From an uncultured Chloroflexia bacterium (GTDB lineage Bacteria > Chloroflexota > Anaerolineae > CG2-30-64-16): 64,000 nucleotides of DNA. The stretch is from positions 107,962-171,961 of the forward strand of contig CAWIPK010000006.1 of NCBI GenBank assembly GCA_963837925.1. The letters are read 5' to 3'. Of the stretch, positions 42,968-56,188 are shown piece after piece. The notes under the pieces are model-generated. The model did no database searches. It saw only the letters and a list, made by a program, of their open reading frames with translations, and was not told the origin of the DNA. Numbering within the stretch: position 1 is the stretch's first letter; each line of letters opens with the position of its first letter. The position numbers and the translations under genes were made by a program.

Positions 42968-44110
42968 TCAGTCGCGCGTCTCGCCCAGCGAACGCAGGAC
43001 GCGAACCAGCACTTCAACCCCCTGGACCCACTCGTGCAAGTCGATATGTTCCTCGGGCGTGTGATCCAGGCTGCTGTCGCCGGGCCCGTAGGCCAGGATC
43101 GGGCAGCGCCAGACCGGGCCAACCACGTTCATATCCGAGGTCCCGGTCTTGAGCAGAAAGCCGGGCCGCCCGCCACCCTCACGGATGGCCTTCAGGAAGG
43201 CGCGCGCGAGCAAGCTGTCCTTCTCGGCCTGGTATGCGACCTCGCCGCCGCGAAACGCCAGCTCGACGCCCCCCGCCAGTTCTCGCAGGATGGACTTCAG
43301 TTCCTCAGGGCCCAGTTCGGGCGGCAGGCGGAAGCCGAGCCTGAGGTGCGCCTCCTCGAACAGACCGTCATCACTCGAGTCAAAGCCGGCCAAGGCGGGC
43401 AAGACCTGTTCCCAGGCACGCAGGCGTCCGGCATTCCATTGGGCAAAGTGAGCCTGCACCCGGCTCCAAAAAGCAATCGCCAGCTCAGGGGCGGTCGCCA
43501 GGCGCCCGCTGCGGTGTGAGATCGGTTGGCGCACCGTCGCGTCGACCAGCAGCCGCCCTTTGTAGCCCACCGTGACCCGCTGCCAGCCACTGGGCTCCCC
43601 GATGACGGCCAGGGCCGGCTGATGCTGCGGCGCCAGGTAGCGCGCTCCCTTAGACGTAGCCGCCTCCTCTTCCACTGCGCCGGCGACCACAATCCGCCAG
43701 CCTGGCGGCGCGCCGGCCTGCGCCGCCGCAGTGGCGAAGGCCACGAGTGCGCCCTTTGCATCCACAGAGCCCCGTCCGAAGAGCCGGCCATCCTGCACGA
43801 CCACGGGCGGGTGCCCCCGCACCGTGTCGATGTGCCCCAGCAGCACGATCTCCTTCACCCCCTCGCCTGCGAGGCCGCCGTCGTCTGCGAGGCCGCCCTC
43901 GTCTGCCGCGGCCGGGCCGCCTTCCAACACACCCACCGCGTTGCCCGCCGCATCCATGAAGGCCCGGAAACCATGCGCCGCCATCCAGTCGACCAGAAAC
44001 GCGCTGGCATCGGCTTCCTGGCCGGACGGCGAGGGGATCGCGACCAGGTCCTGCAGCAACTGCAGCCCGCCGGCGTCTCGCGTCGCCAAATCACTCCTCC
44101 AGACATCCAA
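42968..44110 (-). CDS. lysK: [LysW]-lysine hydrolase / ArgE-family M20 deacylase
   Basis: M20 motifs [24 protein letters not shown]. Last gene of the lysW cluster. Confidence 0.7.
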
Positions 44111-44154
44111 GTACTGAAGCGACGACCTGTCCGGTCGTGGCCGTGCCGCCCAGG

Positions 44155-45123
44155 TCAGGAGTTCAGCGTCCCGCCGGCCAGCGTGCGCGTCACCGCCCGC
44201 CGGACGCGCCGCGCGGCGCTATCCCGTCCGAGATGCTCGAGCAGCAGCGCCGCGCTGAGGATCGCGCCCACCGGATCAGCGATCCCACGGCCGGCGATGT
44301 CGGGAGCGCTGCCGTGTACTGGCTCGAAGACGGCGGCTGGTCCGACCCCGACATTGGCCGAGGGTGCGACGCCGAGCCCGCCGATGAGGCCCGCCGCCAG
44401 GTCCGACAGGATGTCGCCGAACAGGTTCGTGGTCACCAGCACGTCGAAGCGGGCCGGCTGCTTGACGAGCCACATGGCAGCCGCGTCGACCAGCATCTCC
44501 TCTGTCCGCACGTCGGGATATTCGGCCGCCACGCTCAGACACGTCTCGCGGAACAGGCCGTCAGTCAGCTTCAGGACGTTTGCCTTGTGTACGATCGTGA
44601 CGGTCGCGGCATTGGGGCTGGACCTGCCGCCGGCGAGCCGGGCCAGCGCGCGCCGGCGGGCCTGCTCGAAGGCCACACGCGCGATGCGTTCGCTGGCTTT
44701 GCGTGTCACTACCCGTTCAGCGACCGCCGTTTCCCCCTCTCGACGCTCGCGGCCGCTGTACATACCCTCCGTGTTCTCGCGCACGATCAACAGATCCAGC
44801 ATCGGCTGACCGGGAAGAAGCGTCTTCGCCGGGCGCAAGTTGGCATAGAGATCGAAGTCCCGCCGCAGGGCAAGGATCGGGCTGGCATAGCCTGCCACCG
44901 GCCCATTGGGCGATTGGTTCGCGCCGAAGAGCGTGGCATCGACCGACGCCACGGCGGAGCGGGTCGCCTCGGGCAGAGCGCTGCCGCTGCGCTGAAAACA
45001 GTCCCAGCCTGCCTCGGCCTCGACAAAGCGCAGATCGGGTTCGATGGCCGCCAGCACCTGGGCCGCGGCCGGTATGACCTCGCGGCCGATACCATCGCCG
45101 CCGATCAGACAAATCACTGCCAT
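44155..45123 (-). CDS. Homoisocitrate dehydrogenase (short IDH/IMDH-family enzyme, 322 aa)
   Basis: [35 protein letters not shown]. Context with hcs and homoaconitase. Confidence 0.75.
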
Positions 45124-45647
45124 GTGGCATACCTGCGCTTGAGCATAGGGATCAGCCCGCCCGCCTGGATAATCTGCAAAAGCGACGGCGACAGCGGCGG
45201 GAAGGTGAACGTGCGCTCGCCGCAGAAGACCCGGCAGGTCTTGGGGTCCACACTGACGGTCGCGCCGGCCGGGATCGCCCTGGCTGCCTCTGGGCAGATA
45301 ACGGGCAGCACGCCGTTGTTGACTGCATTGCGAAAGAAGATCCGGGCAAACGATACGGCGATGATGGCCCCCACGCCCGCCGCCGCCAGGCAGGTCACCG
45401 CCTGTTCTCGGCTCGAGCCGCAGCCCCAGTTGCGGCCGGCCACAATGATGTCACCGGGTCTGACGCCGGCGGCAAAGCCGGAATCCAGGTCTTCGAGGGC
45501 GTGCTCCGCCATCTGCCGGGGATCGGTCAGCGTGTAAGTGTACTTGCCCGGAAAGATGACGTCGGTGTTGACGTCATCGCCGTATTTCCAAACGCGGCCC
45601 GCCAGAGGACGGGGCGGTCCTTCTGGACTCTCAATCAGGCTTCCCAT
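45114..45647 (-). CDS. lysU: Homoaconitase small subunit (LeuD-like)
   Basis: [13 protein letters not shown] swivel motif. 177 aa. Confidence 0.75.
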
Positions 45648-46975
45648 TGCGCATCCTCTTCAGTATCTGTAACAGCGCGTGGGTCGACAATCCGGCCGGC
45701 CACCGCACTGGCAGCCACCACTGCCGGGCTGGCAAGGTAAACCTCACTCTCGGCGGTGCCCATCCGGCCGCGGAAATTGCGGTTAGCGCTGCTGATCGTC
45801 ACTTCGCCAGGGGCCGGCACGCCCATGTGGTTACCCATGCAGGGTCCGCAGCCCGGCGTGCCAAGCATGGCACCGGCGGCCAGGAAGGTATCGATGTAGC
45901 CCGCCGCCAGCGCCGCCCGCAGCACCTCGCTCGAGGCCGGGATCACCAGGAGGCGCGTGCCGGTCGCCACGCGCCGCACGCGACCGTCAGGGCCTCGCAG
46001 CACCGACGCTGCCAACTTAAGGTCCTCCAAGCGCGCATTCGTGCAGGTGCCGAGAAAAGCCTGGTCCACATGCACGCCGGCCAGCGCTGAGACCGGTACC
46101 ACGTTGTCCGGGCGATGCGGCGCGGCCACGAACGGCTGCAACTCACCCAGCTCGAGGCTGTGGTGGGCCATATAAGTGGCATCTGCGTCGGGGAACAGCG
46201 CGCCCTCGGCGATACGCTCCAGGCACGCGTCGGCCGGTTGGCCGGTGCGCGCGGCAACCCGGCCGGCCAGCCAGCCGTACACCGCGCGGTCCGGCGGCAG
46301 GTAGGCGTTCTTGACCCCGGCTTCGGCCATCATGTTCGGCAGGACCATCCGGCTTTCAACGCTCAGGCCGGCAATGCCGGGACCGGAGAATTCCAGCGCG
46401 CAATAGATGCCCGCCCCGGGGCCCAGCCGCTGCAGGACCGAGAGGCTCAGATCCTTGGCGCTTACCCAGGGCGGCAAGCTTCCCGCCAGGTGAACGAGGA
46501 TGGTTTCTGGCACGCGCAGCCAGAGTTCGCCGGTGGCCCAGATGGCGGCAACCTCGCTGCGGCCCACCCCGGCGCCGAAGGCGCCCAGCCAACCGAAGTG
46601 CGTGGTGTGGCTGTCTGCGCCGAGGATCAGTTGGCCAGGCCATACCAGGGCCTCTTCGCTGATAACCTGGTGGCAGATCCCACGTCCCGCCTCGTAGAAG
46701 TGCGAGATGCCCTGTTCGGCCACGAATCGACGCACCTCGGCATGGTTGGCGGCGTGCTGCGTGCTAGGCGCCGGGACGGCATGGTCGAGAGCGATCGCCA
46801 GCCGCTCGGGGTCCTTTACGCGGCCGGCCCCCAGGCTGCTAAAGATGCGCGCGATGGCCGCAGTGTTGTCGTGGCTCAACACGACTTCCGGCCGGGCGTC
46901 GACGATCTGTCCGGCCACGGCCGACGGCAGGCCTGCGGCGCGCGCCAGGGCTTTTTCGGCGAAGGTGTGTCCCAT
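45635..46975 (-). CDS. lysT: Homoaconitase large subunit (LeuC-like)
   Basis: Aconitase ligands [20 protein letters not shown]. Start taken at MGHTFAEK. Confidence 0.75.
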
Positions 46976-46986
46976 CTGACCCTCTC

Positions 46987-48189
46987 TCATCCGACACTGG
47001 CCGGCGCATCTTCGGCCAGGCTGAGCACCGCCTCCAGCCCCGCATCATGGTGGCCGTTCGCCCACAGGCGGAGCAGATCATCCACGTCGTCCAGCGTGAG
47101 ACGCTTTTCGTCGGCCAGGGCCTTAATGTGCCGCGTGAGCGCCTTGATCTGTTCGGTGCTGAGCGACAGGCCCAGTTGCTCGGCGCGGCCCTTGACCGCG
47201 TTCCAGCCGGTCAGACGATGGGCGATCGAGACGTAGCGTGTCACCCCGAAATCGTGCGGATCGAGCGCCTCATAGGTTTCCGGGGCGTTGAGGATGGCCT
47301 TCGCATGGATGCCGGCCTTATGCGTGAACGCGCAGTATCCGGTGACGCAGTTATTGAATGGAATATCGACGCCGACGAGCTCGGCCACCAGGAGCTCCAG
47401 GCCGCGCAGCTGGTCGAGGCGATACTTCTGGCGCACCGGGTCGCGATCCCAGGTATACATGCGGGCGAGGAAGCCTCCCAGCGAGGCGATCCCGTTGCGC
47501 TCGCCGATGCCAAGCACGGTCGTGTCGACGTGCGTCGCCCCGGCTTCGAGGGCGGCGAAGGCGTTGGCGACGGCACAACCAGAATCGTTATGGCCGTGAA
47601 ACTCGATGTCCGCCTGCGTCATGCGGCGCAGGGTGCCGACGATGCGCGTTACCTGGCCCGGCGAAGCGATGCCGACGGTGTCGGCAATGCCGAGACGATT
47701 CACCACGCCCAGGCGATCGACCGCCAGGTAGACCCGAAACAGGTCGGCCTCCTCGCTACGGAACGAATCCTCCGTGCTGAAGCGCAGGACGATGTCCGGC
47801 GCCTGCGCCCTGATCCAGCTCAGCACGTCGGCGGCCAGATCGATGATCTCCTCGATGCTCTTGCTGTGGCTGAAGCGGCGCAGGGCCGAAGAGGTGCCGA
47901 TGACGACGTCGAGGCCGGCTACACCTGTGTCGAGGGCCACGCGCGCGTCTTCCTTCTGGCAGCGGATGTGCGTCAGGACCTTCGCCTTCAAGCCGAGGCG
48001 TGCGATGGCGCGGGCATCTTCTGCGCTGCCGGGCGAGGCCAGCGGTGAAGTCAGCTCCAGGCACTCGACGCCGAACTCGTCCAGCGCCCGGGCAACCTCG
48101 ACCTTCTGCTCGTGAGTGAAGTTGGCGTTAATGAACTGCTCGCCTTCGCGCAGCGTCGAATCGATGATCGCATATTGTTCAAGTGACAT
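46987..48189 (-). CDS. hcs: Homocitrate synthase (NifV/HCS-type, 400 aa, no LeuA C-terminal domain)
   Basis: [24 protein letters not shown]. Its length excludes LeuA or CimA. Confidence 0.75.
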
Positions 48190-49380
48190 GACGGCCCTCC
48201 AGAGTTTGGGCTAGCGCGCCCACCACCCGCTCCAGGTCTTCCTCGTCGATGACCAGAGGCGGCAGCAGACGGAGCACCGTCGCTCCGGCCGGCAAGGCAA
48301 GGACCCCGAGGGACTGCAAGCCCTGCAAGATCGGCGTCACCTTGGTTTTGAGTTCAATTCCGACCAGCAGACCCAAGCCGCGCACTTCCCGGATCAGTGG
48401 CGAGCGTAGGCCCCTCAAGCGCTCGAGCAAGCCTGCGCCAAGTCGGGCCGCCCTGCCCGGCAGGTCTTCACGGGCCATCACGTCCAGCGTGGCCAGCGCA
48501 GCCGCGCAGGCCAACGGGTTCCCGCCAAAGGTGCTGCCGTGGCTGTGGGGGGGCGGAGGCGCAACCCGCGGGCCGATCAGGCAAGCGCCCATCGGCAGGC
48601 CGCCGGCCATTGACTTTGCGACTGTCATCAGATCCGGCTCGAGCTGATAGTGTTCGGCGGCGAAAAAGGAACCGGTGCGTCCGTAACCCGTCTGCACCTC
48701 GTCGAGGATGAGGAGCGCCCCCGCGCGCGGCAGAGCGCCTGGGCACCGCGCAAATAGGCCGGTTCGCCTGGATGGACTCCACCCTCGCCCTGCACCGCTT
48801 CGAGCAGGACCGCCGCGGTGTCACCGGTCAGCGCGCTCTCGAGAGCGGCCAGGTCGTTGAACGGCACGTGCGTGAAACCGGGCACCAGCGGCTCGAAGGG
48901 CCGGCGATAGTCCCGGTTCCAGGTCGCCGAGAGCGCGCCCATCGTGCGTCCATGAAAACCGCGCATGGCGGCGATGATGTTAGGGCGCCCGGTGCTGGCG
49001 CGCGCCAGCTTAAGCGCGGCTTCGACGGCCTCGGTGCCCGAGTTGCACAGAAAGATGCGCGCGAGCCCTGCCGGGGCGACCCCGGCCAGCGCCGCGAGGA
49101 ATTGCGCGCGCCGGTCGTTGTAAAAGATCTCCGGGCAGGAGATAAGCCGCGCTGCCTGGTCGGCGATCGCGGCGCTGATCGCCGGATGGGCATGGCCCAG
49201 GTTGGCCGCCCCCTGGCCTCCAACGCAGTCGATGTACTCGTTCCCATCGGCATCCCACAGCCGCGCTCCCTGCCCGCGCACGATCGCCAGGGGGCGCTTT
49301 GGATATACGCCGGAGGTATAGGTGCTCTCCAGCTCGATGATGGTTGGCTGATCGCTGGGCTGATCGCTCGGCCCGCCCAT
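48179..49380 (-). pseudogene. lysJ: [LysW]-aminoadipate semialdehyde/acetylornithine aminotransferase (class III PLP), interrupted by an apparent 1-nt deletion in a G5 run near 48700-48706
   Basis: N-terminal part (ORF 48628-49425) and C-terminal part (ORF 48179-48697) are in different frames. Expected ...[23 protein letters not shown]. The genome reads cgcgcgggggcgctcctc where one extra g would restore the frame. Confidence 0.6.
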
Positions 49381-50276
49381 CACTCGCCGCCCCCACCCGC
49401 ACCCTGCAGCCGAGGGAGCGACCAACTGACCGGAAATGCCAGGGCGCCGTCTGCCGTGCCGCGGGTGTTCTCGAACACCGTTCCGTCGCCACTCAATCCG
49501 GCTTCCACCGGGTGAGCGCGGCGCGAGTCCGCCAGGAAGACCGAGGGGACGCCGCCTTCAAGGGCCTCACGTGCGGCCAACACCTTTTTCTTCATCCTCC
49601 CCTGGGCCGCTTCCTCTGCCCCCGCCAGTCTTTCATAGGGCACGCGGCGCAACAGGCTGCTTTCGTCGGGGAAGTTCGCCATCAAACCGACCGTGTTGCT
49701 GAGGATCAGCAGCGCCTGGGCGCCCACCGTGCGCGCCACCAGGGCCGCCACCCGGTCGCCGTCCACGTTGAGCGGTTCGCCTTCGCTGCCGAGCGCCAGC
49801 GGCGCGATGACCGGTGTGTAGCCGGCATCCAGCAGCAGGCGCAGCAAGCCCCCGTTGGCGAGCTCGAGCTGACCGCTGTAGTCGTCGCGCACCACACGTT
49901 GGCGGCCGTTTTCGACCACCCGCAGAGCACTCTTGCGCCGCGCCTGCAGCAGGCGCCCGTCTACCCCGGAGAGACCGAGGGCGTTGCAACCCAGCCTCTG
50001 GAGCATGGCGACCAGAGTTTTGTTCACCTGACCGGCCGCAGCCGCCACATACAGTTCCAGCATCACCGGATCGGTGTAACGGCTGACGTGGCCCGACGGC
50101 GAAACCAACTGCCGCACCGGCACGCCGGCGCGGGTCGCCAGGGCGTCGGCAGCTGCCGAGGTTCCGTGCACCAGGATGACCGGGAGCCCACGCGCCGTTA
50201 GCCCGGCGACGTCAGCGCAGACCGCGGCGCTGTCGACGCCTGCCGCCCCACCTACCTTCACCACGATCGGATTCAT
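49380..50276 (-). CDS. lysZ: [LysW]-aminoadipate kinase (acetylglutamate-kinase family)
   Basis: AAK family MNPIVVKVGGAAG..., GDRVAAL. 298 aa. Confidence 0.75.
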   Translation of the reverse strand: MNPIVVKVGGAAGVDSAAVCADVAGLTARGLPVILVHGTSAAADALATRAGVPVRQLVSPSGHVSRYTDPVMLELYVAAAAGQVNKTLVAMLQRLGCNALGLSGVDGRLLQARRKSALRVVENGRQRVVRDDYSGQLELANGGLLRLLLDAGYTPVIAPLALGSEGEPLNVDGDRVAALVARTVGAQALLILSNTVGLMANFPDESSLLRRVPYERLAGAEEAAQGRMKKKVLAAREALEGGVPSVFLADSRRAHPVEAGLSGDGTVFENTRGTADGALAFPVSWSLPRLQGAGGGGE

Positions 50277-50341
50277 GATTGCTCCTCGCTCGACAATTGC
50301 GGTTCCGAAATGCAGCCGGGCTGGCCGGCCACTGGCCCGAC

Positions 50342-51415
50342 CTAAACAGGATGCAGGCCCATGAACTCAAGGCCCGCGCTCTCGTCCCAACCCAGCATGA
50401 GGTTGAGGCATTGGACCGCGCTGCCGGCCGCGCCTTTGCCAAGGTTATCGATGGCCGCCAGGGCCACCAGGCGGCCGGTGCGCGTATCCACATCCCAGCC
50501 CACATCCGCCAGGTTCGTGCCGGCCAGCAGTTTCGGCTCCGGATGGCGGTAGATTCCCCCCCGCTCGTGGACGATGCGCACGAACGGCTCGGCGGCATAG
50601 GTGTTCCGGTAAGCGCGCCACAAGTCCTTGTCGCTCACACCCGGCTCGACCCAGGCATGAGCGGTCGCCAGCACGCCGCGCACGAGCTCGATCGAAGTCA
50701 CCGACAGGAAAACGTCAGGGCGCCCCAGGGCCTGTACCACCTCGGCCTCGTGCCGATGCCCGGTGGGGGCAAACGAGCGCACTGCGCCGCTGCGTTCCGG
50801 GTGATGGGAGGCCAGGCTGGGAGAGGCGCCGCTTTCGGAAGAGCCGGCCTTCAGGTCCACCACCAACGGCTGCTCCGGCCGGAGCAGCCCGGATCGGACC
50901 AGCGGCAGCAGGGCCAGGATCGACGCCGTGGCATTGCAGCCGACGCCGCTGACGTAGCGCGCCCCACGGATAGCCTCCCGATTCAGCTCGGGCAGCCCGT
51001 AAACAAAACGCCCGAGCCAATCGGGCGTTCTGTGGGGTTCGCCGTAGTATTGTTGGTAGACCTGGGCGTCGCGCAGCCGAAAGTCGGCCGAAAGGTCCAC
51101 GATCCGCTCGGCGAGCGCGGCGAAGTCGGCGATCCGGGTCTGCGCCTGGCCGTGTGGCAGGGCCAGGAACAGAACGTCGCACGGCGCCAGCTCGGCCGAG
51201 GTAGTGAAGCGCAGCGGCTGCGCGGCACCGGCGCCCTGCGGCCGACCGGAAACCGGCCGCAAGTTCGGATGCAAGCTGTGAACGTAGTTGCCGGCCTGCG
51301 ATTCCGAGCTCACCTGGGCGATCTCGACTTCCGGATGTCGCAGCAGCAGACGGAGCAGTTCGCCGCCCGTGTAGCCGGAGCCGCCGACGATCGACACACG
51401 CGCGCGATCGGTCAT
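50342..51415 (-). CDS. lysY: [LysW]-aminoadipyl-phosphate reductase (ArgC family)
   Basis: [18 protein letters not shown], catalytic Cys in [12 protein letters not shown] overlap with the lysX stop. The track ORF is extended to 51703. Confidence 0.8.
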
Positions 51416-52305
51416 AGGACCGGCTCCGGCACGGCCTCGAGCGTTACCCCCTGGCGCGCTTGCTGCAGCACATAGTCGACCATCCTGGCCGGGATATCCA
51501 CGCCCGTCGGCGCGATGCTGTTGCGAAACTCCATCGTGTGATTGACCTCGTTGACCAGCAGGCCGCGCTCGGGATCCTCCATCAGGTCGAGGGCCAAGAC
51601 GCCGCCGCCAACCGCCCGCGCGGCTCGCTGGCACAGGGCATTGATTTCGGCGGTCACCTCGCAGCGACTGGCGCTGCCGCCGCGGGCAGTGTTGGTGATC
51701 CAATGGGCAGATTGGCGATAGATGGCGGCCACCGTCTCGTCGCCGATGACGAATGCGCGGATGTCACGGTCGGGTTTGGTCACGTACTCCTGGATGTAGA
51801 AGACGCTGTGTTGGTAGGAGCCCAGCGTTTGCTTGTGCTCCAGGACGGCCTCGGCCGCGTCCCGATCGTTGATGCGGGCCAGCAGGCGGCCCCACGAGCC
51901 GACGACCGGTTTGAGCACTACCGGATAGCCCAACTCCTCGATCGCGTTCAGCGCGCTCTCCGCCGTAAAAGCGATGCGAACCCGGGGCTGGGGCACGCCG
52001 GCCTCGGTCAGGGCCGCCGTGGTCAGCAGTTTGTCGACACAGGTCGCAGCCGTAGCGTAGCGATTGACCGTAGGAATCCCGGCCAGTTCGAGCAGTCGCA
52101 GCGCATAAAGACCGCGCGCCGCGCTCAACGATCGTTCGAGCACCACGTCCGCTTCCAGGGCCGGACGTCCGTCGCCCAAGGGGAAGACCTGGGCGCCGTC
52201 CTCTACCAGCTGGACGGCCGCCCCGGCGGCCTCGAGCGCCGACAGCAGCAGCTTCTCCTCGACGCGGATGCGCGACAGGATAACTGCGACCCGGATGGCA
52301 GTCAT
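51412..52305 (-). CDS. lysX: Alpha-aminoadipate--LysW ligase (RimK/ATP-grasp)
   Basis: ATP-grasp motifs, [16 protein letters not shown]. Overlaps the lysW stop. Confidence 0.8.
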
Positions 52306-52472
52306 TCTCCCCAATCCTCCTCCACTTCGGGTGCCATCTCGAGCTGGAGCGGGTCCAGCGAGGTAACCTCCAGATCGACGCCACAGAAGGCGCAGGGAAG
52401 GATCTCCCCGACCATCGGGTCCTGCAGGCTCAGATCACCTTCACACTCAGGACAGACAGTTTGATACGACAT
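52302..52472 (-). CDS. lysW: Amino-group carrier protein LysW (56 aa, zinc ribbon, C-terminal EDWGE)
   Basis: [16 protein letters not shown]...[10 protein letters not shown]...EVEEDWGE. CxxC..CxxC plus the acidic tail ending in Glu, the attachment site. The track ORF is extended to 52517. Confidence 0.8.
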
Positions 52473-52501
52473 GCTACAAGTTTCCTTTCCGACTGAGATA
52501 T

Positions 52502-52540
52502 AACACAAAGCCCCCACCCGCCGGACTGGCGGATGGGGGC
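52502..52540 (-). terminator. Second intrinsic terminator in the lys leader (13-bp stem GCCCCCAUCCGCC/GGCGGGUGGGGGC, loop AGUCC, UUUGUGUU), 30 nt upstream of lysW
   Basis: Seen in sequence. One G-U wobble, otherwise perfect. Confidence 0.5.
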
Positions 52541-52574
52541 TTGCGTTGACCGGTTTAGGGTGCGCGCGAGCCGC

Positions 52575-52652
52575 CTATCCGGACCTCCAGTCCGGCAGGT
52601 TGGTGCTCTGCTTCTTAGCGCGCGGCGCAACGGCCAGTTGGCTATGCATCAT
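52575..52652 (-). CDS. Candidate second lys leader peptide MMHSQLAVAPRAKKQSTNLPDWRSG (tandem Lys codons AAG AAG)
   Basis: ORF between terminator 1 and terminator 2. Contains a KK pair. Weak ribosome-binding site (gaaag). Confidence 0.3.
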   Translation of the reverse strand: MMHSQLAVAPRAKKQSTNLPDWRSG

Positions 52653-52681
52653 CTTTCGTGACCCATTCTGCAGACTGCCAG

Positions 52682-52720
52682 AACTAAAACGCCCCGCCGG
52701 GACCTTGTCCTGGCAGGGCG
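52682..52720 (-). terminator. First intrinsic terminator/attenuator in the lys leader (9-bp stem CGCCCUGCC/GGCGGGGCG with G-U wobble, then UUUUAGUU)
   Basis: Located 23 nt downstream of the leader peptide 1 stop. Its 5' arm is complementary to CUUGGCAGGGAC inside the leader coding region (possible antiterminator). Confidence 0.5.
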
Positions 52721-52742
52721 CTGTGCTCGACGGGTGTTGGCG

Positions 52743-52820
52743 TTACCCCAGGCACAAACAGCCGTCCCTGCCAAGGGAAGGCTTCTTGCACTTAGGGAAC
52801 TTCGGTGACACCAGCATCAT
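52743..52820 (-). CDS. Candidate lys leader peptide MMLVSPKFPKCKKPSLGRDGCLCLG (4 Lys codons in 7 residues, including tandem KK)
   Basis: Begins ~28 nt downstream of the predicted transcription start site of a consensus promoter. Followed by terminator 1. Confidence 0.45.
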   Translation of the reverse strand: MMLVSPKFPKCKKPSLGRDGCLCLG

Positions 52821-52853
52821 AAGGCACAAATCTCTCTGAAAAGAATGTGCGGC

Positions 52854-52881
52854 ATTATAACCCGATGTGGCCAGATGTCAA
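52854..52881 (-). promoter_or_regulatory. Consensus sigma-70 promoter (TTGACA-N16-TATAAT) for the lysW cluster
   Basis: Minus-strand ttgacatctggccacatcgggttataat. Both hexamers are perfect consensus. Confidence 0.55.
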
Positions 52882-52919
52882 ATCGCGCTAAGGCGCGCCG
52901 CGCGGCTCCCGGCTCCCGG

Positions 52920-53357
52920 TCAGGTGGCCGGAGGATGCCCGGCGAGGGCAGCCAGCCCGAGGAGATAGCTGTCGGCGCCGAAGCCACTGATCTGCCCACG
53001 GCAGACAGGCGCGAGGACAGACGTGTGCCGGAAGGACTCGCGGGCGTGGATGTTGCTCAGGTGCACCTCGACCGTCGGGATGCTGGCGCCGGCGATGGCG
53101 TCGCGCAGCGAGTACGAATAGTGCGTCAGCGCGCCCGGATTGATCAGCAGCGCATCAGCCCACCCGCTCGCTTGCTGGATCGCGTCGATCAACGCGCCCT
53201 CGTGATTGGACTGCAGGATGCGCAGGACGAGGCCCCGCTCCTGCGCGCTGGCCTCCAGCCGCTCGTTGATCTCTTCCAGAGTCAGTGTGCCGTAGATTCC
53301 GGGCTCGCGTTTGCCGAGCATATTCATGTTTGGGCCATGCAAAACAAGGACATTCAT
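52920..53357 (-). CDS. aroQ: 3-dehydroquinate dehydratase type II
   Basis: [19 protein letters not shown]..., HLSNIHARE. 145 aa. Confidence 0.85.
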
Positions 53358-54995
53358 CGCGTGCTTACCCTTTGATCTTCGCCGCTGCCGGATGGGCGGT
53401 TGTCGGGCAAGCTGATGCTTGCCAGCGCGCGCGCCACTGCCTCGGCCGGCACATCCTCGACCAGCGTCACCTCACCGATGCGCAGCGGCAGAACGAAGCG
53501 CAGGGCACGCCCGCGCCGCTTCTTGTCGGTGCCCATCGCCCCCAACACTTCCTCGAGATCAAACTCGTGCGTAAGGGGCAGTCCGAGACGCCCCACCGCC
53601 TCGCGGATGCGGAGCACCAGGCCCGCATCACAGCGGCCGAGCTCCGCGCTCGAGTTCCGCTGCCGCCACCAGTCCCAGGGCAACACCCTCACCGTGGCGC
53701 AGGCTGTAGCCTGAGACCAACTCGAGGGCGTGGCCGAAGGTGTGGCCGAGATTCAGCCAGCTCCGATCGCCGGCTTCGTAGGGATCGCGTTCGACAATCG
53801 TGGCCTTGACTCGCACCGTATCGGCGATCATCCCGGCCAGAGAATCCGGACCCGCGCCGGCGAGCGCCTCAAACAGCGCCGGGTCGCCGATGACGGCCGT
53901 CTTGAGCACCTCCGCCAGGCCTGAGCGGAACTCACCCGCCGGCAGCGTCGATAGGACGGCCGGGTCGATCAGCACCAACGCGGGCTGCTTGAAGGCACCG
54001 ACCAGGTTCTTGCCCTGTGGCAGGTCGACCGCCACTTTGCCGCCCACGCTGGCGTCGACCATCGCCAGCAGGCTGGTCGGCACCTGCACGAAGGGCACGC
54101 CGCGCAACCAGGTGGCCGCGACAAGGCCGGCCATGTCGCCGACCACTCCCCCGCCCAACGCGATCACCGCCTCATCGCGGCTCATGCGCGCCTCAGCCAG
54201 CCGTTCATAGAGGTCGCCGGCGGTCTTCAGCGTCTTGTACGCCTCGCCATCCGGGACCTCGCAGATGACCGGCTCAAAGCCGGCCTGCGCCAGGGCAGCG
54301 CAGAAGGCGGCCCGATGATGCTTTGCGACGGCGGGATTGGTCACGACGGTGCAGCGCCCGGGGCCCAGCCTGGCGGCCAGCAGACGAGCGCCCGCCTGCG
54401 GGAGCAGGTCCTCGGCGATCAGGATATCGTAGGCGGAGGCGGCCCCGTCCCCCATCCTTGCCACCAGCCGATGCCCTCCGTCCGGCAGATCTACCACCGC
54501 CCCTAGCACCCTCTCCGCCGCGGCGGCCACCGAAAGATGGCCCGTGTCCAGGTGCTTCGGGACGGCTGCGTAGGCCGCCTCGCGCTCGGCCAAGAGGGCC
54601 AGCATGCGTGCCGGGCGATCAGAAGCCCAAAGCATCGGCCGGTCGTGGCGGCCGGCTAACCGCTCGAGGAGTATATCAGGCTCGGCTTCCAGGCAGATCA
54701 GCATTCCACCGGTTGCCAGCGCATCTCGGTTGGCGGCATTGACCACAGCGCCACCACCCGTCGCGACCACCAACCCGGCCGGCTCGCCGAGCTGACGGCA
54801 GGCCTCGGCCTCCAGCGCGCGAAAGGCTGCCTCACCATCTTGGGCAAAGATCTCCGTCACCGGCTTGCCGGCCCGCTGAACGATGAGGTCGTCCAGGTCG
54901 ACGAACCTGCGTCCCAGGCGTTCCGCGACCACGCGCCCAACACTCGTTTTCCCGGTCGCCATAAAGCCCGTCAGCACGATATTTCGCTCAGGCAT
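53354..54995 (-). pseudogene. aroB: Bifunctional shikimate kinase / 3-dehydroquinate synthase (AroK-AroB fusion) with an apparent frameshift at ~53628-53692 separating the last ~105 codons
   Basis: Upstream frame ends ...LVAAAELERGARPL*. The overlapping ORF 53354-53692 encodes the AroB C-terminus (...[19 protein letters not shown]...). The shikimate-kinase P-loop GFMATGKTSVG is at the N-terminus. Confidence 0.6.
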
Positions 54996-55006
54996 CCATC
55001 CCCCGT

Positions 55007-56188
55007 TCAGTCCTCGTAGCCGAAGTGCCACTCGGCGTTATCCATGGGCAGGTCCTTGACCCGCGCACGCGGTAAAGCGGCGAAACGCGGCTTCTGTTCG
55101 GCGAGCGAATCGCCACCCAACTTGCGGATCAGTTCGCCGGCCAGCACCCAGGCGACCATCGCCTCGCCGACGACGACCGCGCGCGGCACCGCACAGAAAT
55201 CCGAGCGCTCGTATCGCGTCGGCGCCGGTTCTCCGCTGGCAAGATCCACGGAGCCGAGCGGCGTCAAGGTGGTGCTGATGGGCTTCATCGCCGCCCGCAA
55301 GATCAGCGGCTCGCCCGTCGTCATGCCGCCTTCCAGTCCGCCCGCCCGGTTGGAGGCCCGCCGCAAGGCCCCATCCTCCCCCACGATCGCGTCGTGCACG
55401 CGCGTGCCGGGCAGGCGTGTGTTGGCGAAGGCCGGCCCGATCTCGGCGCCCTTGATGGCCTGAATCGAACCCAACGCGCCCAACAGGCGGCCACTCAGGC
55501 GCCGGTCAAAGTGTACGTGGCTGCCCAACCCCGGCGGCAGGCCGAGGGCGATCACCTCGAAGACGCCTCCGATGGTATCGCGCGCCTGCATGACATCCCA
55601 GATGGAGCGATGCATCGCCTCGGCGGCCGCCGGATCGGGACAGCGCACGTCGTTCGTCTCGGCCAGCGCGAAACGCTCGGGGTAGGGCAACTCGTCCGGC
55701 AGGTCACACTCCACCTCGCCGATCGAGATCACGTAGCCGCCGACTTTGATGCCGAACTCGGCCAGGTAGGATTTGCAGACTGCGCCGACGGCCACGCGCG
55801 CCGCGGTCTCCCGGGCGCTGGCGCGTTCGAGGGCCGGACGCAGATCGCGGTAGCCGTACTTGAGCGCCGCGGTCAGATCCGCATGGCCGGGCCGGGGCAC
55901 GGTCATGGGCGGGATTGCCTTGTCCGCCCAGGCCTTGTAGTCCCGGTTATCGATCTCCAACGCGACCGGCGCCCCCGTCGTCTTGCCGGCCAGCACTCCA
56001 GCCGTTATACGTACGTGATCGTGCTCGATGCGCATCCGCCCGCCCGAGCCGTAAGACTGCTGGCGGCGCGCCAACTCCCTGTCAACCGTTTCGGCGGTCA
56101 GGGGAACGCCGGCAATCATGCCCTCCAGCAGGGCCGTCAGTCTTGGACCGTGGCTCTCGCCGGCCGTGAGAAAGCGTAGTAGCGGCAT
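55007..56188 (-). CDS. aroC: Chorismate synthase
   Basis: MPLLRFLTAGESHGP, GGRSSARETA-like motifs. 393 aa. Confidence 0.85.
   Translation of the reverse strand: MPLLRFLTAGESHGPRLTALLEGMIAGVPLTAETVDRELARRQQSYGSGGRMRIEHDHVRITAGVLAGKTTGAPVALEIDNRDYKAWADKAIPPMTVPRPGHADLTAALKYGYRDLRPALERASARETAARVAVGAVCKSYLAEFGIKVGGYVISIGEVECDLPDELPYPERFALAETNDVRCPDPAAAEAMHRSIWDVMQARDTIGGVFEVIALGLPPGLGSHVHFDRRLSGRLLGALGSIQAIKGAEIGPAFANTRLPGTRVHDAIVGEDGALRRASNRAGGLEGGMTTGEPLILRAAMKPISTTLTPLGSVDLASGEPAPTRYERSDFCAVPRAVVVGEAMVAWVLAGELIRKLGGDSLAEQKPRFAALPRARVKDLPMDNAEWHFGYED

Follow-up and report, generated by a model that had tools for sequence, protein, structure and literature searches.

The lysine operon and its leader

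The locus described here is a lysine biosynthesis operon in a 64-kb stretch of contig CAWIPK010000006.1 from an uncultured Chloroflexia bacterium (this whole stretch is hereafter called the window; coordinates refer to it throughout, and all operon and leader features lie on its minus strand). Ten contiguous, mostly overlapping genes of the LysW/alpha-aminoadipate (AAA) pathway, in the order lysW-X-Y-Z-J-hcs-lysT-lysU-hicdh-lysK, follow a leader of 447 nt (52919-52473) that separates the stop codon of aroQ (52920) from the ATG of lysW (52472). This leader is the subject of our analysis: it contains two successive units of equal length and equal order of parts, each built from a short open reading frame (ORF) with Lys codons and a terminator hairpin, which we consider as candidate attenuators of the operon.

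The promoter in front of the first unit, TTGACA-16-TATAAT at 52881-52854, matches the sigma-70 consensus at 12 of 12 positions (-35 hexamer at 52881-52876; -10 hexamer at 52859-52854, also placed by alignment A1), and a consensus scan found one such site where 0.2 were expected. Unit 1 carries a leader ORF of 25 codons plus a stop (ORF1, MMLVSPKFPKCKKPSLGRDGCLCLG*, 52820-52743), in which four AAG codons fall within seven (AAG uuc ccu AAG ugc AAG AAG, 52802-52782). The Lys-codon stretch provides the 5' arm of hairpin 1:2 (52797-52746, -28.1 kcal/mol), a putative anti-antiterminator that is also the RNAalifold consensus structure, and downstream of it lies terminator 1 (52721-52682, -22.5 kcal/mol), formed by a hairpin at 52721-52691 and the U tract GUUUUAGUU. 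The predicted antiterminator 1 would join a strand inside ORF1 downstream of the Lys codons (CUUGGCAGGG, 52775-52766) to CCCUGCCAGG (52718-52709), which is at the same time the 5' arm of terminator 1. Unit 2 has a leader ORF of the same size (ORF2, 25 codons plus a stop, MMHSQLAVAPRAKKQSTNLPDWRSG*, 52652-52575) with a tandem AAG AAG at 52616-52611, and its structure can be described by four segments: segment A, the CGC GCG CUA-AG AAG region with the Arg-Ala-Lys-Lys codons (52624-52611), pairs with A', just past the ORF2 stop codon (52570-52562), while segment B (CUGCCGGACUGG, 52598-52587) is the 5' strand both of hairpin B:B' and of the predicted antiterminator 2, B' (52585-52571) including the UAG stop. 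Terminator 2 (52542-52498, -32.3 kcal/mol) consists of a 15-bp hairpin at 52542-52508 and the U-rich tract UGUGUUAUAU, and its apex and 3' arm make up the 3' strand of antiterminator 2 (52529-52518). The consensus scan found two terminator-like sites against 0.6 expected, and the whole-leader fold has a z score of -6.2, none of 100 shuffles being equally stable; a chance origin of these elements is ruled out by their conservation in relatives, described below. An earlier note on this DNA had listed nearly the same parts, and they are found as it described them: a leader at 52473-52919 (given as 450 nt; 447 nt as measured), the perfect-consensus promoter, a 25-codon ORF with four Lys codons, a first hairpin with a U tract and a second 25-codon ORF with tandem AAG AAG. 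The second hairpin and U tract before lysW are likewise present, with a stem of 15 bp rather than the 13 bp stated there.

We assigned the genes by NCBIfam profile scans of the window ORFs. The first structural gene, lysW (52472-52302), encodes a carrier protein of 56 amino acids with the pattern CxxC...CxxC...EDWGE (TIGR01206, 68.1 bits) and has the Shine-Dalgarno sequence GGAAAGGAAA at 52490-52481. Next come lysX (52305-51412; TIGR02144, 346.6 bits); lysY, for an ArgC-like reductase, whose ATG overlaps the lysX stop (51415-50342; TIGR01850, 369 bits); lysZ, for the [LysW]-aminoadipate kinase (50276-49380; NF010659, 330.6 bits); a frameshifted lysJ (49380-48179; NF042418, matched in two pieces); hcs, for homocitrate synthase (48189-46987; TIGR02146, 439 bits); lysT and lysU, for the large and small subunits of homoaconitase (46990-45635, TIGR01343, 456.6 bits, and 45647-45114, TIGR02087, 168 bits); hicdh, for a homoisocitrate-dehydrogenase-type enzyme (45123-44155; NF040626, 360 bits; TIGR02088, 354 bits); and lysK, for the [LysW]-lysine hydrolase (44110-42968; NF003367, 402.5 bits). 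The TIGR02146, TIGR01343 and TIGR02087 matches are above their cut-offs, and the window homocitrate synthase also matches the Protein Data Bank (PDB) entries 2ZTJ and 3IVS with E values of 1e-137 to 1e-143; both hicdh scores lie below the equivalog cut-offs, so this gene is assigned by family and context. The locus therefore has the membership of a LysW-pathway cluster, with LysW, LysX, LysY, LysZ, LysJ (in two pieces) and LysK together with homocitrate synthase, both homoaconitase subunits and the homoisocitrate-dehydrogenase-type enzyme. The profile matches confirm the gene order previously proposed and the recognition of LysW by its zinc ribbon and EDWGE terminus; the description of the cluster as complete holds in that all ten genes are present, but lysJ is interrupted by a 1-nt frameshift.

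The two lysJ ORFs cover profile positions 3-210 and 218-385 of NF042418 and are separated by a 1-nt deletion at a run of five G (48722-48718); with all three frames inspected, the reading ..CRARG followed directly by ALLILDEVQTGYGRTG.. needs one extra base at this run. Either a homopolymer error in sequencing produced this break, or lysJ is a true pseudogene within an otherwise intact operon. Upstream of the leader lies aroQ (53357-52920), and an aroK-aroB fusion gene just beyond it (53354-55031, also on the minus strand) is broken as well, one ORF (55031-53628) covering aroB profile positions 1-266 and another, in a different frame (53692-53354), positions 264-342. Two frameshifts within 6 kb suggest indel errors in the assembly, and single-base details of the leader could consequently be imperfect too, although a serious problem with the leader sequence is argued against by its agreement with 19-22 relatives.

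Conservation and translation of the two units

A LysX search restricted to one genome per species returned 80 loci (numbered from L001), almost all labelled Chloroflexota and nearly all from metagenome-assembled genomes (MAGs), the best with 78% identity; lysW stands directly upstream of lysX in 64 of the 80, as it does in the window. The closest group with both leader ORFs comprises L001-L022 and L029. Profile hidden Markov models (HMMs) were built from the leader alignments (A1-A4, 19 sequences), and nhmmer searches with them detect, besides the window copies, unit 1 in 22 loci and unit 2 in 19 (E values 1e-20 to 1e-32), with exactly one copy of each in the 64 kb of the window. The earlier note had made its reading depend on conservation of the Lys-codon ORFs in related genomes; ORF1 recurs in 22 relatives, with the consensus ..SKCSKSKKPSLACRDGRLCLG, and ORF2 in 19, with the consensus ..LKRAKKQxTSLPDWRSG. 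The AAG codons of both ORFs are invariant columns of the 19-sequence alignments, the hairpins are also kept, and unit 2 further retains one conserved Arg codon (CGC) that is part of helix A:A'. The unit-1 promoter (TTGACA-16/17-TAnAAT, scoring 11-12 of 12) lies upstream in 21 of 23 loci, and an equivalent of terminator 2, of -17 to -30 kcal/mol and followed by a U tract, is found in all 19 aligned sequences including the window, with varying pair types.

The two units appear, from their sequences, to be paralogues. Besides their equal length and layout, the unit-2 HMM gives weak matches that span the whole of unit 1 in two loci (L019, E 0.0016; L003, E 0.0088), and an alignment of the two consensus sequences scores z = 8.7 against shuffles, a value inflated by the shared Lys codons and the G+C-rich terminators. 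In one Caldilineales MAG (L008, region 990-1994) the units are separated by a gene for a LysE-family translocator of 207 amino acids (PF01810, 88 bits), so that each precedes a gene of its own, which indicates that each serves as a gene-proximal control module. It seems paradoxical that a putative exporter of basic amino acids should stand behind an attenuator of the lysine-starvation type.

Several features indicate that the ORFs are translated in the frame of their Lys codons. An ATG in this frame, with no stop in between, precedes the Lys codons in 21 of 23 copies of unit 1 (GTG or TTG takes its place in the remaining two) and in all 20 copies of unit 2, as against 2 and 1 of 23 in the other two frames of unit 1 and 0 and 2 of 20 in those of unit 2. 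Although sequence conservation is lacking in the 5' parts of the ORFs, the distances from ATG to Lys codons differ by multiples of three. Four relatives (L001, L002, L010, L020) have the ATG of ORF1 only about 10 nt past the -10 box, three of them without a Shine-Dalgarno-like motif, which suggests leaderless or nearly leaderless translation of ORF1 in these genomes. Past the Lys codons, selection acts on the RNA and not on the peptide, since the three codon positions are conserved alike: identities at positions 1, 2 and 3 are 0.90/0.90/0.88 in ORF1 and 0.83/0.85/0.84 in ORF2, against 0.84/0.89/0.68 in lysW of the same genomes. Three loci (L007, L011, L015) have lost 2 nt from a hairpin loop, which shifts the frame of ORF2 and moves its stop by 6 nt with all helices kept. 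On the strength of the codon-position values and these frame-shifted variants, we rejected the idea that the conserved peptide tails are functional small proteins.

These data bear on the possibility that only one unit works, the other being a decaying duplicate, or unit 1 being a stand-alone gene for a small transcript or small protein that feeds the operon by read-through. Unit 1 is indeed laid out like an independent gene, with promoter, ORF and terminator; its peptide tail ..KKPSLACRDGRLCLG looks conserved, and the U tract of terminator 1 is short in the window. Moreover, three relatives (L006, L012, L016) have no recognisable ORF2. What speaks for two working units is that both are retained in at least 19 species with compensatory changes in each antiterminator (see below), that the third-position conservation leaves no selection on the peptide, and that in L008 each unit precedes its own gene. 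In addition, terminator 1 is followed by ORF2 after about 30 nt, and the consensus scan found nothing resembling a promoter in this interval; a transcript can therefore reach lysW only through both terminators. We consider a single working unit unlikely. The loci lacking ORF2 themselves carry a second strong terminator-like hairpin after unit 1 (within 175-316 in L006, 1570-1675 in L012 and 2660-2830 in L016); for L012 and L016 we had entertained the view that unit 1 alone suffices, and dropped it on account of this second hairpin.

Strong conservation and structure at the RNA level, with weak Shine-Dalgarno signals before some ORFs, are also what a ribosome-independent sensor would be expected to display, for instance a new class of lysine riboswitch or a tRNA- or protein-binding element whose ORFs are by-products of structure. 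Such a sensor would not account for start codons kept specifically in the Lys-codon frame, for indels in multiples of three in the unconserved 5' parts, for an AAG cluster that is the only invariant feature of the 5' half, or for the Arg-Arg codons that occur in the same context in relatives (see the last section); the alternative hairpins are, besides, simple and without a multi-helix ligand pocket. The leader matches neither the lysine riboswitch nor the T-box nor any other of 4227 Rfam families at E<=10 (only noise was returned), and a search of the whole 64 kb at gathering thresholds likewise gave no relevant match. The lysine riboswitch (RF00168) and the T-box (RF00230) were accordingly rejected as candidates, and we hold a sensor of any ribosome-independent kind to be very unlikely; translated leader ORFs remain the reading that we develop below.

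Alternative structures and a proposed two-stage control

To assess the alternative pairings, explicit helices were counted over the 19 sequences and compared with slid controls, which were 9-55% paired across all four pairings. The terminated state of unit 1 (hairpin 1:2 plus terminator 1) is 97% paired, with six pairs changed on both sides (slid controls 32-53%), and terminator 1 has compensatory changes in 5 of its 11 stem pairs. Antiterminator 1, formed between the ORF1 tail and the 5' arm of terminator 1, is 93% paired with 3 of 6 pairs changed on both sides (slid controls 9-55%); for example, L002 and L010 have CACCUGG/CCAGGUG where the others have GGCCUGG/CCAGGCC. In unit 2, helix A:A' is 81% paired (3 of 8 pairs changed on both sides) and hairpin B:B' 93%; the closed structure that combines the two has 88% pairing and six pairs changed on both sides, and its energy in the window is -31.7 kcal/mol. 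Antiterminator 2, between segment B and the apex plus 3' arm of terminator 2, is 90% paired with 4 of 12 pairs changed on both sides (slid controls 21-51%), and one column of segment B covaries with both of its alternative partners. In the MAFFT alignment of unit 2 the terminator arm is misaligned by indels, so that RNAalifold gave a poor consensus; explicit helices on alignment A4 and per-sequence folds took its place there. A swapped-partner duplex control for antiterminator 1 (-15.0 matched, -13.9 swapped) discriminates poorly, the arms being too conserved.

Folding with a ribosome mask points to a switch that depends on ribosome position. We used truncated transcripts, since full-length masked minimum-energy folds retain the terminators in almost all relatives and thermodynamics alone thus does not show the switch. 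In unit 1, with the last Lys codon covered and the transcript stopped before the 3' arm of the terminator, the 5' arm of terminator 1 pairs with the ORF1 tail in 18 of 19 sequences, compared with 4 of 19 when no ribosome is present. The antiterminator 1 duplex of the window (52775-52766 with 52718-52709) is about as stable as terminator 1 (-23.1 against -22.5 kcal/mol). For the window, masking AAG AAG of unit 2 with a ribosome removes terminator 2 from the minimum-energy fold even when its full 3' arm is included.

The covarying antiterminators are also what decides against a simpler role for the hairpins, namely that they are constitutive or partial terminators that shield the operon from read-through out of aroQ or set its expression level, with no sensing role for the Lys-rich ORFs. 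This would find a motive in aroQ, a same-strand gene whose end lies 39 nt before the -35 box and which has no terminator of its own. Both terminators, however, lie downstream of the operon's own conserved promoter and would throttle the operon itself, and the placement of the Lys codons exactly in the competing arm would be left unexplained together with the covariation. We give this explanation hardly any credence.

We instead regard it as quite probable, from the comparative data and the modelled folds, that two ribosome-mediated leader-peptide attenuators in series read charged tRNA-Lys and gate the operon from lysW to lysK. The leader combines the hallmarks of such control, with short ORFs, clusters of codons for the end product, intrinsic terminators before lysW and mutually exclusive antiterminators, whose dependence on ribosome position is modelled. 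The attenuation reading that the earlier note had put forward thus gains support from the conservation of both units in about 20 relatives, from the retained frame and invariant Lys codons, and from the compensatory changes.

In the scheme that we propose, we infer ribosome stalling, a kinetic order of folding, lysine dependence and a multiplicative effect. Transcription would start about 7 nt past the TATAAT box. With plentiful Lys-tRNA, the ribosome would run through ORF1, hairpin 1:2 would form or re-form, terminator 1 would fold and transcription would stop at about 52682-52690; a ribosome stalled on the AAG codons would leave the 3' part of ORF1 (the CUUGGCAGGG strand) unoccupied, and the 5' arm of terminator 1 would be captured by it, which would block termination. 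Polymerases that pass terminator 1 would face the same logic again in unit 2. There, the K-R-A-K-K codon stretch in segment A would pair with A', lock hairpin B:B' and let terminator 2 form, whereas a ribosome stalled on AAG AAG would free A', making B and B'/A' available as pairing partners to the 5' arm and apex of terminator 2; a ribosome reaching the UAG would cover B/B', and terminator 2 would form. Serial checkpoints of this kind should multiply, so that basal read-through would be very low and the lysine response steeper.

A number of observations weigh against this scheme or are left over by it. Shine-Dalgarno-like elements before ORF1 are weak or distant (10-14 nt), and none was found before ORF2 of the window, where one was looked for, although such motifs are present in many relatives; ORF2 of the window moreover has only two Lys codons. 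The second hairpins without ORF2 in L006, L012 and L016 are not accounted for by the model. When unit 2 is truncated before the 3' arm of its terminator, the antiterminator is clear in 11 of 19 sequences, partial in 5 and absent in 3. Mask folding with a ribosome at the ORF1 stop codon leaves the antiterminator strand uncovered, so that termination in lysine excess depends on the refolding of hairpin 1:2. Finally, most relatives keep terminators 1 and 2 as the thermodynamic optimum even with the ribosome masked on the Lys codons, and the switch would hence have to be kinetic, as in classical attenuators. The mutually exclusive folds anticipated for this leader are accordingly backed by covarying antiterminators in both units and by the masked folds of unit 1 (18 of 19), but not by the energies in most relatives.

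Known attenuators, arginine codons and significance

Most work on attenuation by leader peptides concerns Proteobacteria. To our knowledge, the one lysine system described is that of Thermus, the lysine (AAA) cluster of Thermus thermophilus being reportedly controlled by such an attenuator. For a comparison on sequences, we went from PDB entry 2ZTJ (homocitrate synthase of T. thermophilus) through its homologues to their contigs (loci L081-L084). Two Thermus loci (L082, L083) have, between uppS and hcs, a promoter, the leader ORF MLAREKKLGRRGLG* (ATG CTG GCC CGT GAG AAA AAA CTC GGT CGC CGG GGG TTA GGA TAG) and one terminator (CCGGCCCGAGUUCGGGCCGG-UUUUCG), and Oceanithermus (L084) has the leader ORF MKYREAKKLYAGGAG* and one terminator before hcs; no such leader was found at hcs of Deinococcus maricopensis. 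The mention of a Thermus attenuator in the earlier note is in line with these sequences, each with one short ORF containing Lys-Lys and one terminator, and so is its view of a duplicated unit as unusual, Thermus and Oceanithermus having one unit and the window two. The likeness extends to control of a LysW/AAA cluster, a short ORF with tandem Lys codons, an intrinsic terminator and an ORF tail complementary to the 5' arm of the terminator. The Thermus type, however, is a single unit of about 110 nt before hcs, with an ORF of 14-15 codons and AAA AAA, whereas in the window two units, each about 125-170 nt long, precede the first gene, lysW, with ORFs of 25 codons and AAG codons. Neither the unit-1 nor the unit-2 HMM matches the leaders of L081-L084 at E<=10 (nhmmer). 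The window element would thus work like the Thermus attenuator, and membership in the same sequence family is not supported by the HMM search.

Two side observations were made at these loci. In L082 (3634-4054) and L083 (3634-4060), a hicA/hicB toxin-antitoxin pair lies on the opposite strand between the hcs and homoaconitase genes; L081 has neither the pair nor, at this position, the homoaconitase genes. In Oceanithermus (L084, 1700-2330) the hcs promoter is preceded by two copies of a repeat of about 300 nt, recognised by eye (..gtgtggg..ccttcggctt..ccctcccc.aagggagggcg..actgcc.cgaagaa..).

With the classical attenuators of Proteobacteria (trp, his, leu, thr, ilvGMEDA, pheA) the window leader shares the four-segment logic, with regulatory codons in segment 1, hairpins 1:2, 2:3 and 3:4 and an intrinsic terminator. 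It differs from them in phylum, amino acid and pathway, in having two complete attenuators in series, and in the apparently leaderless or near-leaderless translation of ORF1 in some relatives. Functionally, it can be likened to the lysine riboswitch (L-box, RF00168), which also brings about lysine-dependent premature termination before lysine genes; that riboswitch typically controls genes of the diaminopimelate pathway or of transport and is independent of translation. Tandem riboswitches and T-boxes (tandem thiamine pyrophosphate or glycine elements, Bacillus subtilis thrZ) are thought to give tighter or more switch-like control and likewise place two complete sensors of the same signal, each with its terminator, in series; theirs sense a ligand or tRNA through RNA, whereas here the sensor would be the translating ribosome. 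The published case of tandem leader ORFs that we found, the mgtCBR leader of Salmonella, has units mgtM and mgtP that sense different signals, ATP and proline, and has been called 'singular' (Lee & Groisman 2012, PMC3641672). In contrast, both ORFs of the present leader have Lys codons, each unit has a canonical intrinsic terminator, and the units are apparently paralogous. In the literature searched, we found no relevant text on attenuators of Chloroflexi. The element is most likely, judging by its sequence, a conserved tandem variant of classical leader-peptide attenuation in a doubled form.

The wider set of loci places this tandem beside simpler leaders. Among the more distant Anaerolineales, at least 17 loci show just one leader ORF, followed by one terminator, before lysW, and in about 13 of these the ORF, 80-220 nt upstream of lysW, has tandem identical Arg codons (CGT CGT or CGA CGA) adjoining Lys codons (L023, L033, L036, L038, L039, L042, L044, L047, L052, L053, L054, L057, L059; for example LKRARRLPKKP in L023, LKRARRSPKP in L033 and PLKRR in L038). 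The 5' part of these single leaders is homologous to unit 2 of the window clade and aligns with it, L023 having TTG AAG CGC GCN [CGT CGT nnn CCG] AAG AAG where the window clade has TTG AAG CGC GCT AAG AAG, and an Arg-Arg pair in the same AAG-CGC-GCN context is what sensing by codon identity predicts. The operons behind these leaders also have the order lysW-X-Y-Z-J. A trunk of LysW enzymes shared by lysine and arginine synthesis is known biochemically for Sulfolobus and Thermococcus, and the leaders with both codons may represent multivalent Lys+Arg attenuation of such a trunk; they have a parallel in the multivalent leaders of Proteobacteria, that of thr responding to Thr and Ile and that of ilv to Leu, Val and Ile. 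Three MAGs (contig pairs L038/L069, L040/L051 and L057/L071) have two LysX paralogues, one of them within leader-lysW-X-Y-Z-J; in the two MAGs examined the second adjoins AAA genes, as hacA-hacB-hicdh-lysX' in L069 and hicdh-lysX'-lysJ'-lysK in L051. This split of LysX paralogues is reminiscent of LysX/ArgX in Sulfolobus. The tandem layout also occurs in a more distant lineage: in an Anaerolineaceae MAG (L079), two tandem ORFs with Lys codons only, MNSNPVTKKAKKTEPNR and MIKFVESKKKQVKKPALRSG, are located 40-320 nt before lysW, each with a terminator-like hairpin behind it. We offer only tentatively the further conjecture that the two units are non-redundant and derive from an ancestral multivalent Lys+Arg attenuator, that Arg-Arg(+Lys) as opposed to Lys-Lys codons track the use of lysW-X-Y-Z-J for arginine and lysine or for lysine alone, and that duplication in the window clade gave a two-stage, multiplicative lysine gate, with one Arg codon still present in unit 2. 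For use in both pathways the evidence is indirect, namely the second LysX paralogue that genomes with the Arg+Lys leader have within a separate hacA-hacB-hicdh-lysX'-lysJ'-lysK cluster.

We know of almost no characterised RNA regulation in Chloroflexota. The units described here form a well-conserved family of putative attenuators in this phylum (in Anaerolineae/Caldilineales-like lineages) for which Rfam currently has no model, and will be of interest to specialists in RNA regulation and amino-acid pathways. For annotation, two small ORFs and two attenuator terminators should be entered in the 447-nt gap rather than leaving it empty. The leader would be a natural case of two ribosome-dependent attenuators for the same signal in series, where the mgtCBR leader senses two, and the family could serve as a test bed for how serial attenuators shape a dose-response. 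If the pattern of Lys and Arg codons holds true, the leader peptides would moreover provide a cheap genomic indicator of those LysW clusters in uncultured bacteria that also make arginine.

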